DNA from: Escherichia phage vB_EcoM_SYGD1
Reading direction: 5' to 3' (one strand)
Length of the DNA stretch: 64,000 bases
Sequence record: MW883059
Part shown: positions 29,651-59,612 of the stretch, in pieces
Layout of the letters: every line of letters starts with the position of its first letter
Numbering within the stretch: position 1 is the first letter of the stretch
The notes under the pieces: model-generated
Told to the model about the DNA's origin: nothing
Database searches by the model: none
What the model saw: only the letters and a program-made list of their open reading frames with translations
Made by a program: the position numbers and the translations under genes

Positions 29651-29723
29651 TGGGAATTAGCCAAGTTGGTAAGGCATAGCACTTTGACTGCTAGATGCAA
29701 AGGTTCGAGTCCTTTATTCCCAG
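29651..29723 (+). tRNA. tRNA-Gln (UUG)
   Basis: Manual fold: acceptor tgggaat/attccca, anticodon loop cttTGac, T-arm ggttcgagtcc. Confidence 0.8.
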
Positions 29724-29724
29724 C

Positions 29725-29811
29725 GCGAGAATGGTCAAATTGGTAAAGGCACAGCACTTAAAATGCTGCGGAATGATTTCCTTGTGGGTTCGAGTCCCAC
29801 TTCTCGTACCA
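29725..29811 (+). tRNA. tRNA-Leu (UAA)
   Basis: Manual fold: long variable arm, anticodon loop ctTAAaa, T-arm ggttcgagtcc, encoded CCA. Confidence 0.8.
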
Positions 29812-29817
29812 AAGTTT

Positions 29818-29889
<72 letters not shown>

Positions 29890-29901
29890 AAATTTAATTT
29901 A

Positions 29902-29975
29902 CTCCGTGTAGCTCAGTTTGGTAGAGCGTCTGCTTTGGGAGCAGAATGTCACAGGTTCAAATCCTGCCGCGGAGA
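29902..29975 (+). tRNA. tRNA-Pro (UGG)
   Basis: Manual fold: anticodon loop ttTGGga, T-arm ggttcaaatcc. Confidence 0.8.
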
Positions 29976-29977
29976 CT

Positions 29978-30064
29978 GGAGGCGTGGCAGAGTGGTTTAA
30001 TGCACCGGTCTTGAAAACCGGCAGTCGCTCCGGTGACTCATAGGTTCAAATCCTATCGCCTCCG
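29978..30064 (+). tRNA. tRNA-Ser (UGA)
   Basis: Manual fold: long variable arm, anticodon loop ctTGAaa, acceptor ggaggcg/cgcctcc. Confidence 0.8.
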
Positions 30065-30071
30065 TAATTTC

Positions 30072-30144
30072 GCTGATTTAGCTCAGTAGGTAGAGCACCT
30101 CACTTGTAATGAGGATGTCGGCGGTTCGATTCCGTCAATCAGCA
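30072..30144 (+). tRNA. tRNA-Thr (UGU)
   Basis: Manual fold: anticodon loop ctTGTaa, acceptor gctgatt/aatcagc. Confidence 0.8.
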
Positions 30145-30150
30145 TATCAA

Positions 30151-30222
30151 GGCCCTGTAGCTGGAAGGTTCAAGCAAGCGACTCATAATCGCCAGATGGT
30201 GGTTCAATTCCACCCAGGGCCA
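30151..30222 (+). tRNA. tRNA-Ile (CAU, lysidine type) or Met
   Basis: Manual fold: acceptor ggccctg/cagggcc, anticodon loop ctCATaa; T4 carries a CAU tRNA read as Ile. Confidence 0.7.
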
Positions 30223-30263
30223 TATTTTGGGAACATAAATACTCTTAGAAATAGGAGATATTT

Positions 30264-30929
30264 ATGTTCCATTACACTTATAAAATAACAAATAAAATTA
30301 ATAATAAAATCTATATAGGCGCTCATTCTACCGAAAATTTAGATGATGGATATATGGGTTCTGGTAAATTATTAAAAAGAGCCCAAGACAAGTATGGTAT
30401 AGAAAATTTCTCTAAAGAAATATTAGAGTTCTTTGACGATAAAACCTCTATGTTTGAGTCAGAAAAGAATATTGTGACTGAAGAGTTTTTAAAGCGCCCT
30501 GATGTTTATAATTTGAAATTAGGTGGTGAAGGTGGTTGGGACCATTTAAACACTAAAGAATATTTGGATAAAAAGAAAGAAGCTTCCTTAAAAGGGGCTG
30601 CTGCTTTTAAAACCAGATTTGAGAACGACCCAGACCTTAAAGAAAAATATCGTAAAATGGGTTCAGAAAGGTTTAAACAGCTTTGGGATAATCCTAAGTA
30701 TAGAGAGAAATTTTTAAATATTAAATCTTTATTGGGTAAGACCCATACTCCTGAAACTATTAATAAAATGAAAGAATCTCACGCCAGAAATAAACACCAA
30801 CAGGGCGAAAAGAATTCCCAATTTGGTATGATGTGGATTCATTCATTAGATGAAAAAGTTTCTAAACGTATTAAGAAAACTGACCCAATTCCAGAAGGAT
30901 GGTTTAAAGGTCGAAAAATGAAATTTTAA
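30264..30929 (+). CDS. segB: GIY-YIG homing endonuclease inside the tRNA cluster (SegB-like)
   Basis: 221 aa; N-terminal YTYKITNKINNKIYIGAHS...YMGSG; sits between tRNA-Ile and tRNA-Arg as segB does in T4. Confidence 0.75.
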   Translation: MFHYTYKITNKINNKIYIGAHSTENLDDGYMGSGKLLKRAQDKYGIENFSKEILEFFDDKTSMFESEKNIVTEEFLKRPDVYNLKLGGEGGWDHLNTKEYLDKKKEASLKGAAAFKTRFENDPDLKEKYRKMGSERFKQLWDNPKYREKFLNIKSLLGKTHTPETINKMKESHARNKHQQGEKNSQFGMMWIHSLDEKVSKRIKKTDPIPEGWFKGRKMKF

Positions 30930-30932
30930 TTA

Positions 30933-31009
<77 letters not shown>

Positions 31010-54875: not shown

Positions 54876-55349
54876 ATGTTATTGACTGGCAAATTATACA
54901 AAGAAGAAAAACAGAAATTTTATGACGCACAAAACGGTAAATGCTTAATTTGCCAACGAGAACTAAATCCTGATGTTCAAGCTAATCACCTTGACCATGA
55001 CCATGAATTAAATGGACCAAAAGCAGGAAAGGTGCGTGGATTGCTCTGTAATCTCTGCAATGCAGCGGAAGGTCAAATGAAACACAAATTTAATCGTTCT
55101 GGCTTAAAAGGACAAGGCGTTGATTATCTTGAATGGTTAGAAAATTTACTTACTTATTTAAAATCCGATTACACCCAAAATAATATTCACCCTAACTTCG
55201 TTGGAGATAAATCAAAGGAATTTTCTCGTTTAGGAAAAGAGGAAATGATGGCTGAGATGCTTCAAAGAGGATTTGAATATAATGAATCTGACACTAAAAC
55301 ACAATTAATAGCTTCATTTAAGAAGCAGCTTAGAAAGAGTTTAAAATGA
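54876..55349 (+). CDS. 49: Endonuclease VII (Holliday junction resolvase)
   Basis: 157 aa; Cys pairs and HLDHDHELNG catalytic region. Confidence 0.85.
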   Translation: MLLTGKLYKEEKQKFYDAQNGKCLICQRELNPDVQANHLDHDHELNGPKAGKVRGLLCNLCNAAEGQMKHKFNRSGLKGQGVDYLEWLENLLTYLKSDYTQNNIHPNFVGDKSKEFSRLGKEEMMAEMLQRGFEYNESDTKTQLIASFKKQLRKSLK

Positions 55350-55864
55350 CAATTGAAAAAGAAATTGAAGGATTGATTCATAAAACTAATAAAGACCTTT
55401 TAAACGAGAATGCTAATAAAGATTCTCGTGTTTTTCCAACTCAACGGGACCTTATGGCTGGTATTGTGTCTAAACACATTGCCAAAAATATGGTCCCGTC
55501 TTTTATTATGAAAGCGCATGAAAGCGGAATTATTCATTTCCATGATATTGATTATTCCCCTGCTCTTCCATTTACTAATTGCTGTTTAGTAGATTTAAAA
55601 GGAATGCTTGAGAACGGGTTTAAGCTTGGTAATGCACAGATTGAAACCCCTAAATCAATTGGCGTTGCTACTGCAATTATGGCACAAATTACTGCACAGG
55701 TTGCTTCCCATCAATATGGCGGAACGACTTTTGCGAATGTAGATAAAGTACTTTCTCCTTATGTTAAACGCACCTATGCGAAACATATTGAGGACGCGGA
55801 AAAATGGCAAATCGCAGATGCATTGAATTATGCCCAATCTAAAACAGAAAAAGATGTCTATGAC
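55346..55864 (+). CDS. nrdD: Anaerobic ribonucleotide reductase NrdD, exon 1 (3' boundary approximate)
   Basis: Reading frame closes at 55891 inside the intron; exon end estimated, not determined. Confidence 0.6.
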
Positions 55865-56897
55865 GCGTTCCAGGCGTATGAGTTAATTTAATTCAGGCTC
55901 ATGTAAAACCGGTCTAAACGGGGAACCTCTCTAGTAGACAATCCCGTGCTAAATGTTCTTTTGAACTAAATGCCTAACGACTAACCGTGATGAATGTAGC
56001 GGTGTAGAATAGAAGCTAATGCTATTCGAAACGGCCGGCATCGAAAGATGAAGATATAGTCTAATCTGCATGGCGACATGCAGCAGTCATCTTGTATAAA
56101 TAAGATTATCTTATGAATACGAGGTGAAACAATGAAATGGATAAAAAGACGTTGTACTAAAATAAAAGATAAAGACGCATTTACATACTTAGTTAAGTTT
56201 TCTAATGGTGACATTTATATCGGTTATAAAAAATTTAGAACAATTAAAAACAAGCCCACAAACTGGAAAACTTACACAACGTCATCTAAGTATATAAATG
56301 AACGCTTAAAAACTGATACACCTACTAAATGGATAATTTTAAAAACATTTGATAGTTATAAAGATGCATTAAAACATGAAGAAGAGGTCATACGTAAATA
56401 TTTTTATAGCAAAAAATGTTTAAATAAATCCATAGGCGGTAAAAAGTTTTATAAGCATCCGGATACTGAAGAACATATTCAAAAATTAAGAGATGCTCAT
56501 AAGGGTAAAGTGTTATCCGAATCTCATAAAAACAATATAAAATCTTCTGTAGCTGAATATTATGCTAAAAACGGAAGATCTAAGGAACATGTGCAAAATA
56601 ATATCAATAGTCGAAAAAGTAAAAAACAAGTATCGATAAAGCTTAAAAATAAAACTTTTAGAAGTTTTAAAAAAGCAGCGGAATATTTAAATTGCACTGA
56701 AAGTGAAGTCGAAACTCATCCTCTTGTTTTGAGTATTAAGACTACTATTCATAAAGTTCCTGAATATGTGGTTGTTGACGGTATTAAGTATACGTCTTAT
56801 ATAGAAGCAGCTAAAGCGCTAAATTTTCATCCTAGCACTATAAAAGAACGTTGCATATCTATGGACTATCCAAATTTTGTTGTTTCATATAAACGGG
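55865..56897 (+). mobile_element. Group I self-splicing intron in nrdD carrying a homing endonuclease ORF (boundaries approximate)
   Basis: nrdD frame is interrupted by about 1 kb holding a free-standing GIY-YIG ORF, then resumes; T4 nrdD has a group I intron of similar size. Confidence 0.6.
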
Positions 56898-56902
56898 CAT
56901 GA
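56132..56902 (+). CDS. Intron-encoded GIY-YIG homing endonuclease (I-TevII-like)
   Basis: 256 aa; FTYLVKFSNGDIYIGYKK GIY-YIG motif; inside nrdD intron. Confidence 0.7.
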   Translation: MKWIKRRCTKIKDKDAFTYLVKFSNGDIYIGYKKFRTIKNKPTNWKTYTTSSKYINERLKTDTPTKWIILKTFDSYKDALKHEEEVIRKYFYSKKCLNKSIGGKKFYKHPDTEEHIQKLRDAHKGKVLSESHKNNIKSSVAEYYAKNGRSKEHVQNNINSRKSKKQVSIKLKNKTFRSFKKAAEYLNCTESEVETHPLVLSIKTTIHKVPEYVVVDGIKYTSYIEAAKALNFHPSTIKERCISMDYPNFVVSYKRA

Positions 56903-58208
56903 ATTTGCGACTCATGCTGAATATAATGATGAAGTAAATACACTTTTCAGCTCTAATGGACAAACGCCTTTTGTAACAATTACATTTGGTACGGGAACTG
57001 ACTGGACTGAACGAATGATTCAGAAAGCAATTCTGAAAAATCGTATTAAAGGTCTTGGTCGTGACGGGATAACTCCTATTTTCCCTAAACTTGTTATGTT
57101 CGTTGAAGAAGGTGTTAATCTTTATAAAGACGATCCGAACTATGATATTAAGCAGCTTGCTCTAGAGTGTGCAAGTAAAAGAATGTATCCTGACATCATT
57201 TCGGCTAAGAACAATAAAGCTATTACCGGTTCATCTATTCCTGTTTCTCCAATGGGTTGTCGTAGTTTCTTGAGTGTATGGAAAGATTCGACTGGTAATG
57301 AAATTCTTGATGGACGTAATAATCTTGGTGTTGTAACACTGAATCTTCCTCGTATTGCGTTAGATTCTTATATTGGAACACAGTTCAATGAACAGAAATT
57401 TGCCGAATTGTTCAATGAACGAATGGATTTATGTTTTGAAGCTTTGATGTGTAGAATCAGTTCCTTAAAAGGAGTTAAAGCGACTGTTGCTCCTATTCTT
57501 TATCAAGAAGGTGCATTCGGGGTTCGTCTTAAACCTGATGACGATATAATTGAGTTATTTAAAAACGGTAGAAGTTCAGTGTCCTTAGGATACATTGGTA
57601 TTCACGAATTGAATATTCTTGTCGGTCGTGATATTGGACAAGAAATTTTAACTAAAATGAATGCTCATCTTAAGCAGTGGACTGAAAGAACCGGTTTTGC
57701 TTTTAGCTTGTATTCTACTCCTGCGGAAAACCTGTGCTATCGCTTCTGTAAACTTGATACCGAAAAATATGGAAGTGTAAAGGATGTTACTGATAAAGGC
57801 TGGTACACTAATAGTTTCCATGTTTCAGTAGAAGAAAATATTACTCCGTTTGAAAAGATTTCTCGCGAAGCCCCATATCATTTCATTGCGACAGGTGGTC
57901 ACATTTCTTATGTTGAACTTCCTGATATGAAAAATAACCTAAAAGGTCTTGAGGCTGTATGGGATTATGCTGCACAACATTTAGATTATTTTGGTGTTAA
58001 TATGCCAGTAGATAAATGTTTTACGTGTGGAAGTACCCATGAAATGACTCCAACTGAAAACGGATTTGTTTGTTCTATTTGTGGAGAAACTGATCCTAAA
58101 AAGATGAACACAATAAGAAGAACATGCGGATATCTTGGAACTCCTAGCGTTGTTCCATGGAATTTAGGTAAAATGAAAGAAATGGTAAAACGAGTAAAAC
58201 ATGCATAG
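56898..58208 (+). CDS. nrdD: Anaerobic ribonucleotide reductase NrdD, exon 2 (5' boundary approximate)
   Basis: Zn ribbon CFTCGSTHEMTPTENGFVCSICGE and glycyl radical motif RRTCGYLG near C-terminus. Confidence 0.8.
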   Translation, partial: HEFATHAEYNDEVNTLFSSNGQTPFVTITFGTGTDWTERMIQKAILKNRIKGLGRDGITPIFPKLVMFVEEGVNLYKDDPNYDIKQLALECASKRMYPDIISAKNNKAITGSSIPVSPMGCRSFLSVWKDSTGNEILDGRNNLGVVTLNLPRIALDSYIGTQFNEQKFAELFNERMDLCFEALMCRISSLKGVKATVAPILYQEGAFGVRLKPDDDIIELFKNGRSSVSLGYIGIHELNILVGRDIGQEILTKMNAHLKQWTERTGFAFSLYSTPAENLCYRFCKLDTEKYGSVKDVTDKGWYTNSFHVSVEENITPFEKISREAPYHFIATGGHISYVELPDMKNNLKGLEAVWDYAAQHLDYFGVNMPVDKCFTCGSTHEMTPTENGFVCSICGETDPKKMNTIRRTCGYLGTPSVVPWNLGKMKEMVKRVKHA

Positions 58209-59031
58209 GTATTATATAATTTATAAAATAACAAATATAATTAATTCAAAGGAATATATCGGTGCGCATAGCACCGATAACATAAATGACGGTTATATGG
58301 GGTCAGGAACATTGATTCGTGCCGCTTTATTAAAATATGGTAGAAAAAATTTTAATAAAGAAATTTTACATGTTTTTGATAATGAAAAACAAATGTATGA
58401 TAAAGAAGCTGAACTTGTAACCGAAGAGTATTGTCTAAAAGAAAATACATATAATATTAAACCTGGTGGAAAAGGTGGAACTGCCTATGAACAGACACTT
58501 GAACATCGCCGCAAAAATAGTTTAGCAAATAAAGGTAAAAAGAGAACAGAAGAAACTAAAATAGCTATTTCACGTGCTTTAAAGAAATATAAACGTACGC
58601 CAGAGCATCAAGCAAATTTAAATAAAGCCGTAAGCATAGCTATGAAGCGAAAAGATGTTAGAAGTAAATTAGCTGGAGAGCGGTCTGAGAAAGATAAATT
58701 ATCTATATCAAACGGTGTTAAAAAATATTACAATTCTTTGAGTGAAGAAGAACGCGAACTTCATCGCAAGCGAATTATTGAAGGTAAAAAGAATTCTCCC
58801 ATGTCATTGGAATCTAGACAAAAGCTTTCAAAAGCTTTAAAAGGACTTCAAGTTGGTTCAAAAAATCCAATGTATGGAAAAATTTCTCCAACTAGCAAAA
58901 CCGTTTCAGTTGACGGTATTAAATATGATTCAATTAAAAAGTGCTCAAATGCCATAAAAGTTTCTAGACATCTTATACTAAAACGCTGTAATTCTACTGA
59001 TGAAGCTTGGAAAAATTGGATATTATTATGA
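58201..59031 (+). CDS. GIY-YIG homing endonuclease (seg-like) between nrdD and nrdG
   Basis: YYIIYKITNIINSKEYIGAHS...YMGSG; resembles the segB-like ORF at 30264. Confidence 0.7.
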   Translation: MHRYYIIYKITNIINSKEYIGAHSTDNINDGYMGSGTLIRAALLKYGRKNFNKEILHVFDNEKQMYDKEAELVTEEYCLKENTYNIKPGGKGGTAYEQTLEHRRKNSLANKGKKRTEETKIAISRALKKYKRTPEHQANLNKAVSIAMKRKDVRSKLAGERSEKDKLSISNGVKKYYNSLSEEERELHRKRIIEGKKNSPMSLESRQKLSKALKGLQVGSKNPMYGKISPTSKTVSVDGIKYDSIKKCSNAIKVSRHLILKRCNSTDEAWKNWILL

Positions 59032-59498
59032 ATTATGACAGAATATACCCGTGCTGCTTTGTTAATGGTCCTGGATGCAGGACAGTTCTTTTCGTTACAG
59101 GTTGTTTGCATAAATGCGAAGGGTGTTATAATAAATCAACATGGAATGCTAGAAATGGCGTTCCATTCACTGGTGAAACACTAGAACAATTAATTGAATG
59201 TTTGAATAATGATTATATAGAAGGATTAACTATAACTGGAGGAGACCCTCTTTATCCTGATAACCGAGATGATGTTCATTGCATTGTTCAAACGGTAAAA
59301 AATCTTTATCCAAATAAAAGCATTTGGTTGTGGACAGGGTACAAGTTTGAAGATATTAAACAACTAGAAATGCTTAAATATGTTGATGTTATTATTGATG
59401 GGAAGTATGAGAAAAATCTTCCGACCAAAAAGCTGTGGCGGGGTTCAGATAATCAGCGACTTTGGTCAAATACCGATGGGGTGTGGAAACATGATTAA
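59028..59498 (+). CDS. nrdG: Anaerobic RNR activating enzyme NrdG (radical SAM)
   Basis: CLHKCEGC radical-SAM cluster motif; 156 aa from MNYDRIY. Confidence 0.8.
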   Translation: MNYDRIYPCCFVNGPGCRTVLFVTGCLHKCEGCYNKSTWNARNGVPFTGETLEQLIECLNNDYIEGLTITGGDPLYPDNRDDVHCIVQTVKNLYPNKSIWLWTGYKFEDIKQLEMLKYVDVIIDGKYEKNLPTKKLWRGSDNQRLWSNTDGVWKHD

Positions 59499-59612
59499 AC
59501 TGAATTATATTATTGATACTATAAATGATATGATTTTTCATTTTGGTCCAGAATTTTATTCGCAGTATAGTTTAGTACTTATCAATGCTTGGTTAATCAA
59601 TTAAGGGTAAAT

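Follow-up and report, generated by a model that had tools for sequence, protein, structure and literature searches.

The nrdD gene of Escherichia phage vB_EcoM_SYGD1 (sequence record MW883059) is almost certainly a T4-like gene interrupted, at exactly the site occupied by the T4 nrdD (sunY) intron, by a 1045-nt mobile group I intron that belongs to a sister lineage of the T4 element and has a mosaic core. All positions given here are those of the window, the whole stretch of 64,000 nucleotides that was analyzed, which is T4-like (Tequatrovirus-type) phage DNA; a 4.6-kb region reaches 98.4% identity to Tequatrovirus genomes in a nucleotide database comparison. The product of nrdD is a class III anaerobic ribonucleotide reductase, and the interrupted gene is divided as follows.

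55346..55883 (+): nrdD exon 1, 538 nt, 3' end GCG UAU GAG U, with U55883 as the 5' splice-site base (alignment with T4 nrdD and intronless RB51 and PD112; 605-aa spliced translation)
55884..56928 (+): group I intron, 1045 nt, subgroup IA2-type architecture, terminal (omega) G at 56928 (Rfam RF00028, drawn helices, covariation)
56929..58208 (+): nrdD exon 2, 1280 nt including the stop codon, with Zn-ribbon cysteines and the RRTCGYLG glycyl-radical motif

The nrdD frame starts at 55346 and ends at a stop codon at 55889-55891 (open reading frame [ORF] 55346..55891, C-terminal end QAYELI), while a second ORF in the nrdD frame spans 56877-58208 and contains CFTCGS...CSICG and RRTCGYLG. Alignment to T4 nrdD and to the intronless alleles of RB51 and PD112 places the 5' splice site at 55883|55884 and the 3' splice site at 56928|56929. 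Exon 1 ends at U55883 (...GCGTATGAGT) and exon 2 begins at A56929 (ATGAAGTAAAT...), giving the junction GCGTATGAGT|ATGAAGTAAAT; the junctions of RB51 and PD112, read directly, are TATGAAT|ATGAAGT. This placement is unambiguous: the intron and exon 2 start with different bases, and the intron and exon 1 end with different bases, so that neither boundary can be shifted. Intron-bearing alleles carry GAGU and intronless alleles GAAU at the 5' splice site; both codons encode Glu, and the G of GAGU completes helix P1 of the intron. The uninterrupted junction can be found in at least 619 phage records.

Joining the exons yields a coding sequence of 1818 nt and a protein of 605 aa, the same length as T4 NrdD, to which it is identical at 590/605 positions. 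It aligns without gaps with residues 1-604 of PDB 1H78, the T4 NrdD crystal sequence, and matches Pfam NRDD at 572 bits (profile positions 1-562 of 562) and Gly_radical at 88 bits. The NRDD domain, Zn-ribbon cysteines and glycyl-radical motif of a class III NrdD are thus all carried on one spliced polypeptide.

The original prediction for this locus had proposed an nrdD gene split by an intron of roughly 1 kb, with the NrdD frame stopping at 55891, two frames offset in keeping with an intron length of 1 mod 3, and an exon 2 bearing a Zn ribbon and RRTCGYLG. These proposals are borne out: both motifs lie in the second ORF, the frame offset and the 1045-nt length are each 1 mod 3, and the interruption removes cleanly and has a group I core inside it. 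The comparison with T4 nrdD that the original prediction had called for gives the same insertion site, and removal of the intron restores an NrdD colinear with that of T4. Its candidate boundaries (55864/56898), which it had itself described as unfixed, need to be moved by 19 and 31 nt according to the intronless alleles, and correct splicing gives exactly 605 aa where a product a few residues longer had been expected. The boundaries 55864/56898 would produce a protein of 609 aa and disagree with the junctions of the intronless phages.

We scanned positions 55700-57100 (1.4 kb) with the Rfam model RF00028 (Intron_gpI; gathering score 50 bits), which matched 55852-56083 over model positions 1-253 with 74 bits and an E-value of 1.4e-18, a value that argues against a chance pattern. 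The T4 nrdD intron, as a positive control, scored 105.3 bits. The secondary structure was drawn by hand on the window intron, and all the drawn helices (P1, P3-P9, P9.0, P9.2 and P10) consist of standard pairs only.

55877..55903 (+): P1, exon UAUGAGU 55877-55883 with internal guide GCUCAUG 55897-55903
55909..56061 (+): catalytic core, standard pairs and Rfam alignment
55909-14 with 56033-38: P3
55918-23 with 55942-47: P4
55928-30 with 55936-38: P5
55948-49 with 55972-73: P6
55955-58 with 55963-66: P6a
55979-83 with 56057-61: P7
55984-87 with 56000-03: P7.1
56007-12 with 56022-27: P7.2
56039-42 with 56047-50: P8
56052-61: J8/7 and the 3' strand of P7, AGAUAUAGUC
56064..56083 (+): P9.0 5' strand and P9; P9.0 pairs 56064-65 with 56926-27, and P9 (CUGCAUG-GCGA-CAUGCAG) pairs 56066-72 with 56077-83
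56897..56928 (+): 3' terminal domain; P9.2 pairs GCAUGA 56897-902, which contains the ORF stop UGA, with UCAUGC 56912-17, followed by UGAAUAUAAUG, the P9.0 3' strand 56926-27 and G56928

U55883 and G55897 form the wobble pair at the 5' splice site, and the P10 guide UUCA (55892-55895) lies within the P1 loop, with a partner, UGAA (56930-33) in exon 2, to which it can pair over 4 bp. The intron has an Rfam score above gathering, P3-P8 with the P3/P7 pseudoknot, the J8/7 consensus, U-G at the 5' splice site and a terminal G, as a group I intron should. In the Michel and Westhof classification, subgroup IA2 is defined by extra helices P7.1 and P7.2 between P7 and P3', and both are present here and both covary. 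The core motifs AGATATAGTC and AAATGCCTAACGACTA each occur once in the window, and a core-motif search found no second group I intron there.

For covariation we aligned five ORF-deleted introns: those of the window, T4 nrdD, T4 td, phi92 nrdD and an Aeromonas phage terminase gene. Standard pairs fill 88.9% of cells with the helices as drawn and 35-43% when the 3' partners are slid by 1-3 columns, 30 pairs are changed on both sides as drawn versus 6-8 in the slid controls, and the observed values were reached in 0/500 shuffles. On alignment A1, P3, P4, P5, P6, P7 and P7.1 are 100% paired. The percentage-paired measure is favoured, since the structure was derived from one of the aligned sequences; the changes on both sides, which occur in P3, P4, P6a, P7.1, P7.2, P8 and P9.2, are free of this bias. 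The original prediction had named a failure to fold any group I core as one of two outcomes that would speak against it. Because a core can be drawn with standard pairs, with covariation and with 74 bits, the group I reading stands.

A scan of the whole 64-kb window with Rfam at the gathering threshold and with default filters returned tRNAs only and missed the intron, which is a filter effect; other ORF-containing introns may escape whole-window scans in the same way. The tRNAs form a cluster of eight (29651-31006, + strand) that looks like the T4-type tRNA region.

The core itself resembles different phage introns in different places. Its 42 nt at 55913-55954 (J3/4, P4, P5 and the 5' part of P6) match the td intron of T4, T6, RB3 and U5 with 100% identity; the J3/4-P4-P5-P6 segment matches the td intron at 40/40 aligned positions, nine of which differ in the T4 nrdD intron. 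P1 and the guide segment are closest to T4 nrdD (17/21), and P7.1 and P7.2 most resemble the Aeromonas phage terminase intron (22/23 and 16/21 identical positions). This mosaic, above all the td-identical P4-P6, suggests that core modules may have been exchanged between phage introns in nature. Bryk and Belfort reportedly carried out laboratory shuffling between T4 introns in 1990.

The intron carries one gene, and the original prediction had already noted a 256-aa GIY-YIG ORF ending at 56900-56902 and called it I-TevII-like.

56132..56902 (+), stop 56900-56902: intron-encoded homing endonuclease gene, I-TevII homologue, 256 aa, with an N-terminal GIY-YIG domain and a C-terminal NUMOD1-type DNA-binding module

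Both descriptions hold. Pfam PF19835 (SegE_GIY-YIG) matches residues 9-86 at 26.6 bits (cutoff 25), the NUMOD1 module was also found, and the ORF also matches PHROG 314 'homing endonuclease' (E 3.6e-29). The ORF aligns with T4 I-TevII over its full length (256 vs 258 aa), with 144 identities in 257 aligned positions (56%; E 1e-101). When 50,697 phage records were searched by tblastn with the ORF, the matches fell into two classes only, 44 records at or above 95% identity (40 of them at or above 99%) and 25 T4-type records at about 56%, with none in between. Matches with E <1e-8 for which annotated features were listed are all at the nrdD locus, and I-TevI is not among the matches. The seven intron-carrying sequences that we read (the window, T4 and five fetched relatives) likewise fall into exactly two length classes.

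Some copies of the gene are damaged. The endonuclease matches of MT682712 (phage F1) and PP434423 (236Ecol005PP) are in two pieces and the genes are probably frameshifted, and PP328843 (215Ecol030PP) retains a remnant of residues 202-256 only; homing endonuclease genes usually decay in this way.

As in T4, the ORF is located on the 3' side of the catalytic core, between P9 and P9.2, and two predicted RNA structures are associated with its ends.

56087..56127 (+): ribosome-binding-site hairpin that buries the Shine-Dalgarno sequence GAGG (56121-24), with a T4 late-promoter-type box, TATAAATA, inside it at 56095-56102
56124..56888 (+): predicted long-range ORF-closing helix (P9.1-like), 56124-56143 (just upstream of the AUG to the fourth codon) with 56867-56888, 20 bp with a 2-nt bulge

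The hairpin at 56087-56127 folds at -17.3 kcal/mol (z -5.15), whereas the fragment from 56099, without the 5' arm, reaches only -3.7 kcal/mol, which is no improvement on shuffled sequence; folding also gives an equivalent hairpin in the T4 nrdD intron. An arrangement of a hairpin-hidden ribosome-binding site and a late promoter has been described for I-TevII (review PMC2988022). The ORF-closing helix has an RNAduplex energy of -20.5 kcal/mol and its T4 equivalent, of 17 bp, -16.3 kcal/mol; sequence conservation alone is not proof of this helix, because both of its arms are coding. A 22-mer at 56107-56128, which overlaps the ribosome-binding site of the ORF, agrees at 17/22 positions with the homing site of intronless nrdD (-12 to +10), a match equalled by 6/2000 shuffles. 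It may be a putative autorepression operator, like the one that has been put forward, as a proposal only, for I-TevII (PMC2988022).

These features can be assembled into a sequence of events. The RNA can form the group I core (P1, P3-P9, the P3/P7 pseudoknot, U55883-G55897 and the terminal G56928), which is the step documented here. By known group I chemistry, exogenous guanosine would then attack after U55883 and the freed exon 1 would attack after G56928, so that the exons would be joined as GAG U|AU GAA in an mRNA for the 605-aa NrdD. The long-range helix between the ends of the ORF would loop the ORF out, bringing P9.2 and the 3' splice site near the core. As has been described for T4 I-TevII, late transcripts, from which the 5' arm of the hairpin is missing, would be the main template for translation of the endonuclease. 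In a mixed infection it would cut intronless nrdD near the insertion site, and repair from the intron-carrying genome would copy the intron together with some 100 nt of flanking exon.

Two patterns among related genomes are consistent with homing of this kind. The intron is 100% identical to that of the window in LH2, 99.9% in F2 and 99.7% in Mosigvirus KAW3E185, while the nrdD exons of these phages differ from those of the window by 4.0%, 5.1% and 6.2%, respectively; near-identical introns in carriers with diverged exons indicate probable recent homing. When the exons are compared with those of T4 and RB51, mismatches are most frequent in the two 60-nt windows that flank the insertion site (8+10 and 8+7), whereas carriers of the same intron type have fewer mismatches beside the site (1-6 per 60-nt window). 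Such a site-centred tract of divergence is what would be expected from co-conversion.

The same observations bear on whether the endonuclease is active. It could be that the intron splices and its endonuclease is inactive, the element being inherited only vertically or moved in trans, for example by the neighbouring SegH-like enzyme. The decayed genes of F1, 236Ecol005PP and 215Ecol030PP and the presence of a free-standing GIY-YIG gene 1.3 kb downstream would fit this explanation, and trans-homing of the defunct T4 nrdB intron endonuclease gene by MobE is documented (PMC2790892). We nevertheless consider it improbable: the ORF is intact, of full length relative to I-TevII and at least 99% identical in 40 records; introns that are 99.7-100% identical occur in three carriers from two genera whose exons differ by 4-6%; the stretch of divergent exon sequence has its centre at the intron site and not at the downstream gene; and window-type and T4-type introns are each found both with and without that gene.

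It is very unlikely that the element is simply the T4 nrdD intron with I-TevII, showing ordinary strain-level variation. Insertion site, architecture and exon product length are indeed the same, but the core is 72.5% and the endonuclease 56% identical, the lengths are 1045 and 1033 nt, the stem sequences of P6a, P8, P7.2 and P9.2 differ, and the database holds two discrete classes with no intermediates. Because of these sequence distances we rejected this explanation.

Scarcely credible is a truly split nrdD, in which a free-standing endonuclease gene was inserted and either the two NrdD fragments are produced as separate proteins or the gene is non-functional, with no RNA splicing: many GenBank records do list two 'anaerobic ribonucleotide reductase' coding sequences and a homing endonuclease with no intron, and the mobE-split NrdA of Aeromonas phage Aeh1 is a precedent, but a complete, covarying group I core lies exactly between the fragments, the intervening DNA can be excised with single-nucleotide precision, neither a start codon nor a ribosome-binding site is present where exon 2 truly begins, and the homologous element of T4, given in record NC_000866 as a joined coding sequence with a group IA intron, is reported to be mobile (PMC2988022).

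Several points count against the interpretation that we favour, a mobile, self-splicing intron of a sister lineage. Its Rfam score is below that of the T4 intron (74 vs 105 bits), P10 has only 4 bp and P9.0 only 2 bp, and the Pfam score of the GIY-YIG domain barely exceeds its cutoff (26.6 vs 25). The few carriers with frameshifted or truncated endonuclease genes indicate that the gene can decay. No counterpart of the outer P9.1 helix of T4, CUGUUUAU/AUAAACGG, was found in the window intron, only the inner ORF-closing helix being common to both, and the peripheral 3' domain is therefore arranged somewhat differently from that of T4. Self-splicing and DNA cleavage by the window lineage are activities that we infer from homology. 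Finally, if nrdD is dispensable for aerobic growth, laboratory culture would exert no strong selection against an intron that splices poorly.

The intron sits in a conserved neighbourhood, in which gene 49 is followed by nrdD, a GIY-YIG gene and nrdG, in that order.

54876-55349: gene 49 (endonuclease VII)
58201-59031: free-standing GIY-YIG gene, 276 aa, with NUMOD3 and an I-TevI-type DNA-binding domain, in the position of T4 mobC

The phage F2 record gives the downstream GIY-YIG gene the name SegH. The gene begins with an ATG at 58201 that overlaps the stop codon of nrdD, and in some GenBank records it is started 96 nt later, whereby the GIY...YIG motif is lost. The last ~78 nt of nrdD (from 58131) show 32 mismatches against T4 and intronless RB51, and 11 of the last 22 residues differ from T4; this 3' end is nearly identical in 5/5 fetched relatives, each of which has the downstream GIY-YIG gene. 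It looks like a co-conversion tract tied to that gene. A further case can be seen in Yersinia phage fPS-2, which has an extra homing endonuclease gene between gene 49 and nrdD (347-1168 of the fetched sequence) and in which nrdD is highly divergent over its first ~240 nt (14-27 mismatches per 60 nt), in what looks like another co-conversion tract. A scan of 55300-59600 for sigma-70 promoters and terminators gave nothing relevant, with fewer promoter-like sites than in shuffles.

The element is of an ordinary, known kind, sharing its site, its architecture and a homologous ribozyme and endonuclease with the T4 nrdD/sunY intron and I-TevII. Mobile group I introns in T-even nrdD genes have been known since the 1980s, and the findings therefore add little new biology. 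They do have consequences for annotation: the locus should be given as one nrdD coding sequence, join(55346..55883, 56929..58208), with an intron and an intron-encoded endonuclease, where many public records of the same element list two 'reductase' fragments and a 'homing endonuclease' instead. The occurrence of two discrete intron and endonuclease lineages at one site, with many compensated differences in their stems, also amounts to a natural covariation experiment on the sunY ribozyme, and of the two lineages the one that turns up more often in sequenced phages appears to be the biochemically uncharacterised one.

A bolder proposal, which we regard as doubtful though worth stating, is that the element is an uncharacterised second nrdD-intron lineage that originated when co-resident phage introns exchanged modules, and that its endonuclease has shifted its target preference to TATGAAT|ATGAAGTAAATACTCTC, the homing-site variant common among intronless phages in nature. 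If true, the shifted preference could explain the presence of this lineage in more sequenced phages than the T4 type (44 vs 25 records), and the element would be a natural case in which intron domains were shuffled and two homing endonucleases compete for the same site.

Among known systems, the T4 nrdD (sunY) intron with I-TevII (NC_000866, 43535..46385) is the nearest. The T4 locus has the same order, 49, nrdD (a joined coding sequence with I-TevII inside), mobC and nrdG, and the intron is inserted at the same site, after TATGAGT and before ATGAAGT, with a 605-aa spliced product and an endonuclease homologous over its full length. Both introns have a compact core that lacks P2 and includes P7.1 and P7.2, an ORF placed 3' of P9, a long-range closing helix, P9.2, a terminal G and a ribosome-binding-site hairpin containing the late-promoter-type box. 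Compensated differences separate them in stems P3, P4, P6a, P7.1, P8 and P9.2; the P9.2 stem of T4, GUAGAG/CUCUAC, has another sequence than that of the window and is still paired. The window intron has a longer P7.2 and a shorter P8, a 9-nt insertion extends its ribosome-binding-site hairpin, the outer helix of T4 is absent from it, and the flanking exon codons differ synonymously. Judged by sequence comparison, the window intron represents a sister lineage that has diverged from the T4 intron, and is not that intron itself; the lineage had been sequenced previously, and we found no published characterisation of it in the literature.

The td intron, which encodes I-TevI, has the same 3' end (UGAAYAUAAUG), is also IA2-type and also contains a GIY-YIG endonuclease gene. 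It differs from the window intron in its host gene and its P1, in having P2, in an ORF looped out of P6a, and in P7.1, P7.2 and P8. The ORF-less IA2 introns of the phi92 and Serratia phage KKP_3264 nrdD genes and of the Aeromonas phage 2L372X terminase gene occupy other insertion sites or host genes and have no endonuclease ORF. The intron of phi92 and KKP_3264 (~190-468 of the fetched sequences) lies after VTSMG and before CRSFLS, a different site from that in the window, and nrdD has therefore been hit by related introns at more than one position. These ORF-less introns have a core consensus in common with the window intron, and their P9, P9.2 and 3' tail are conserved with it.

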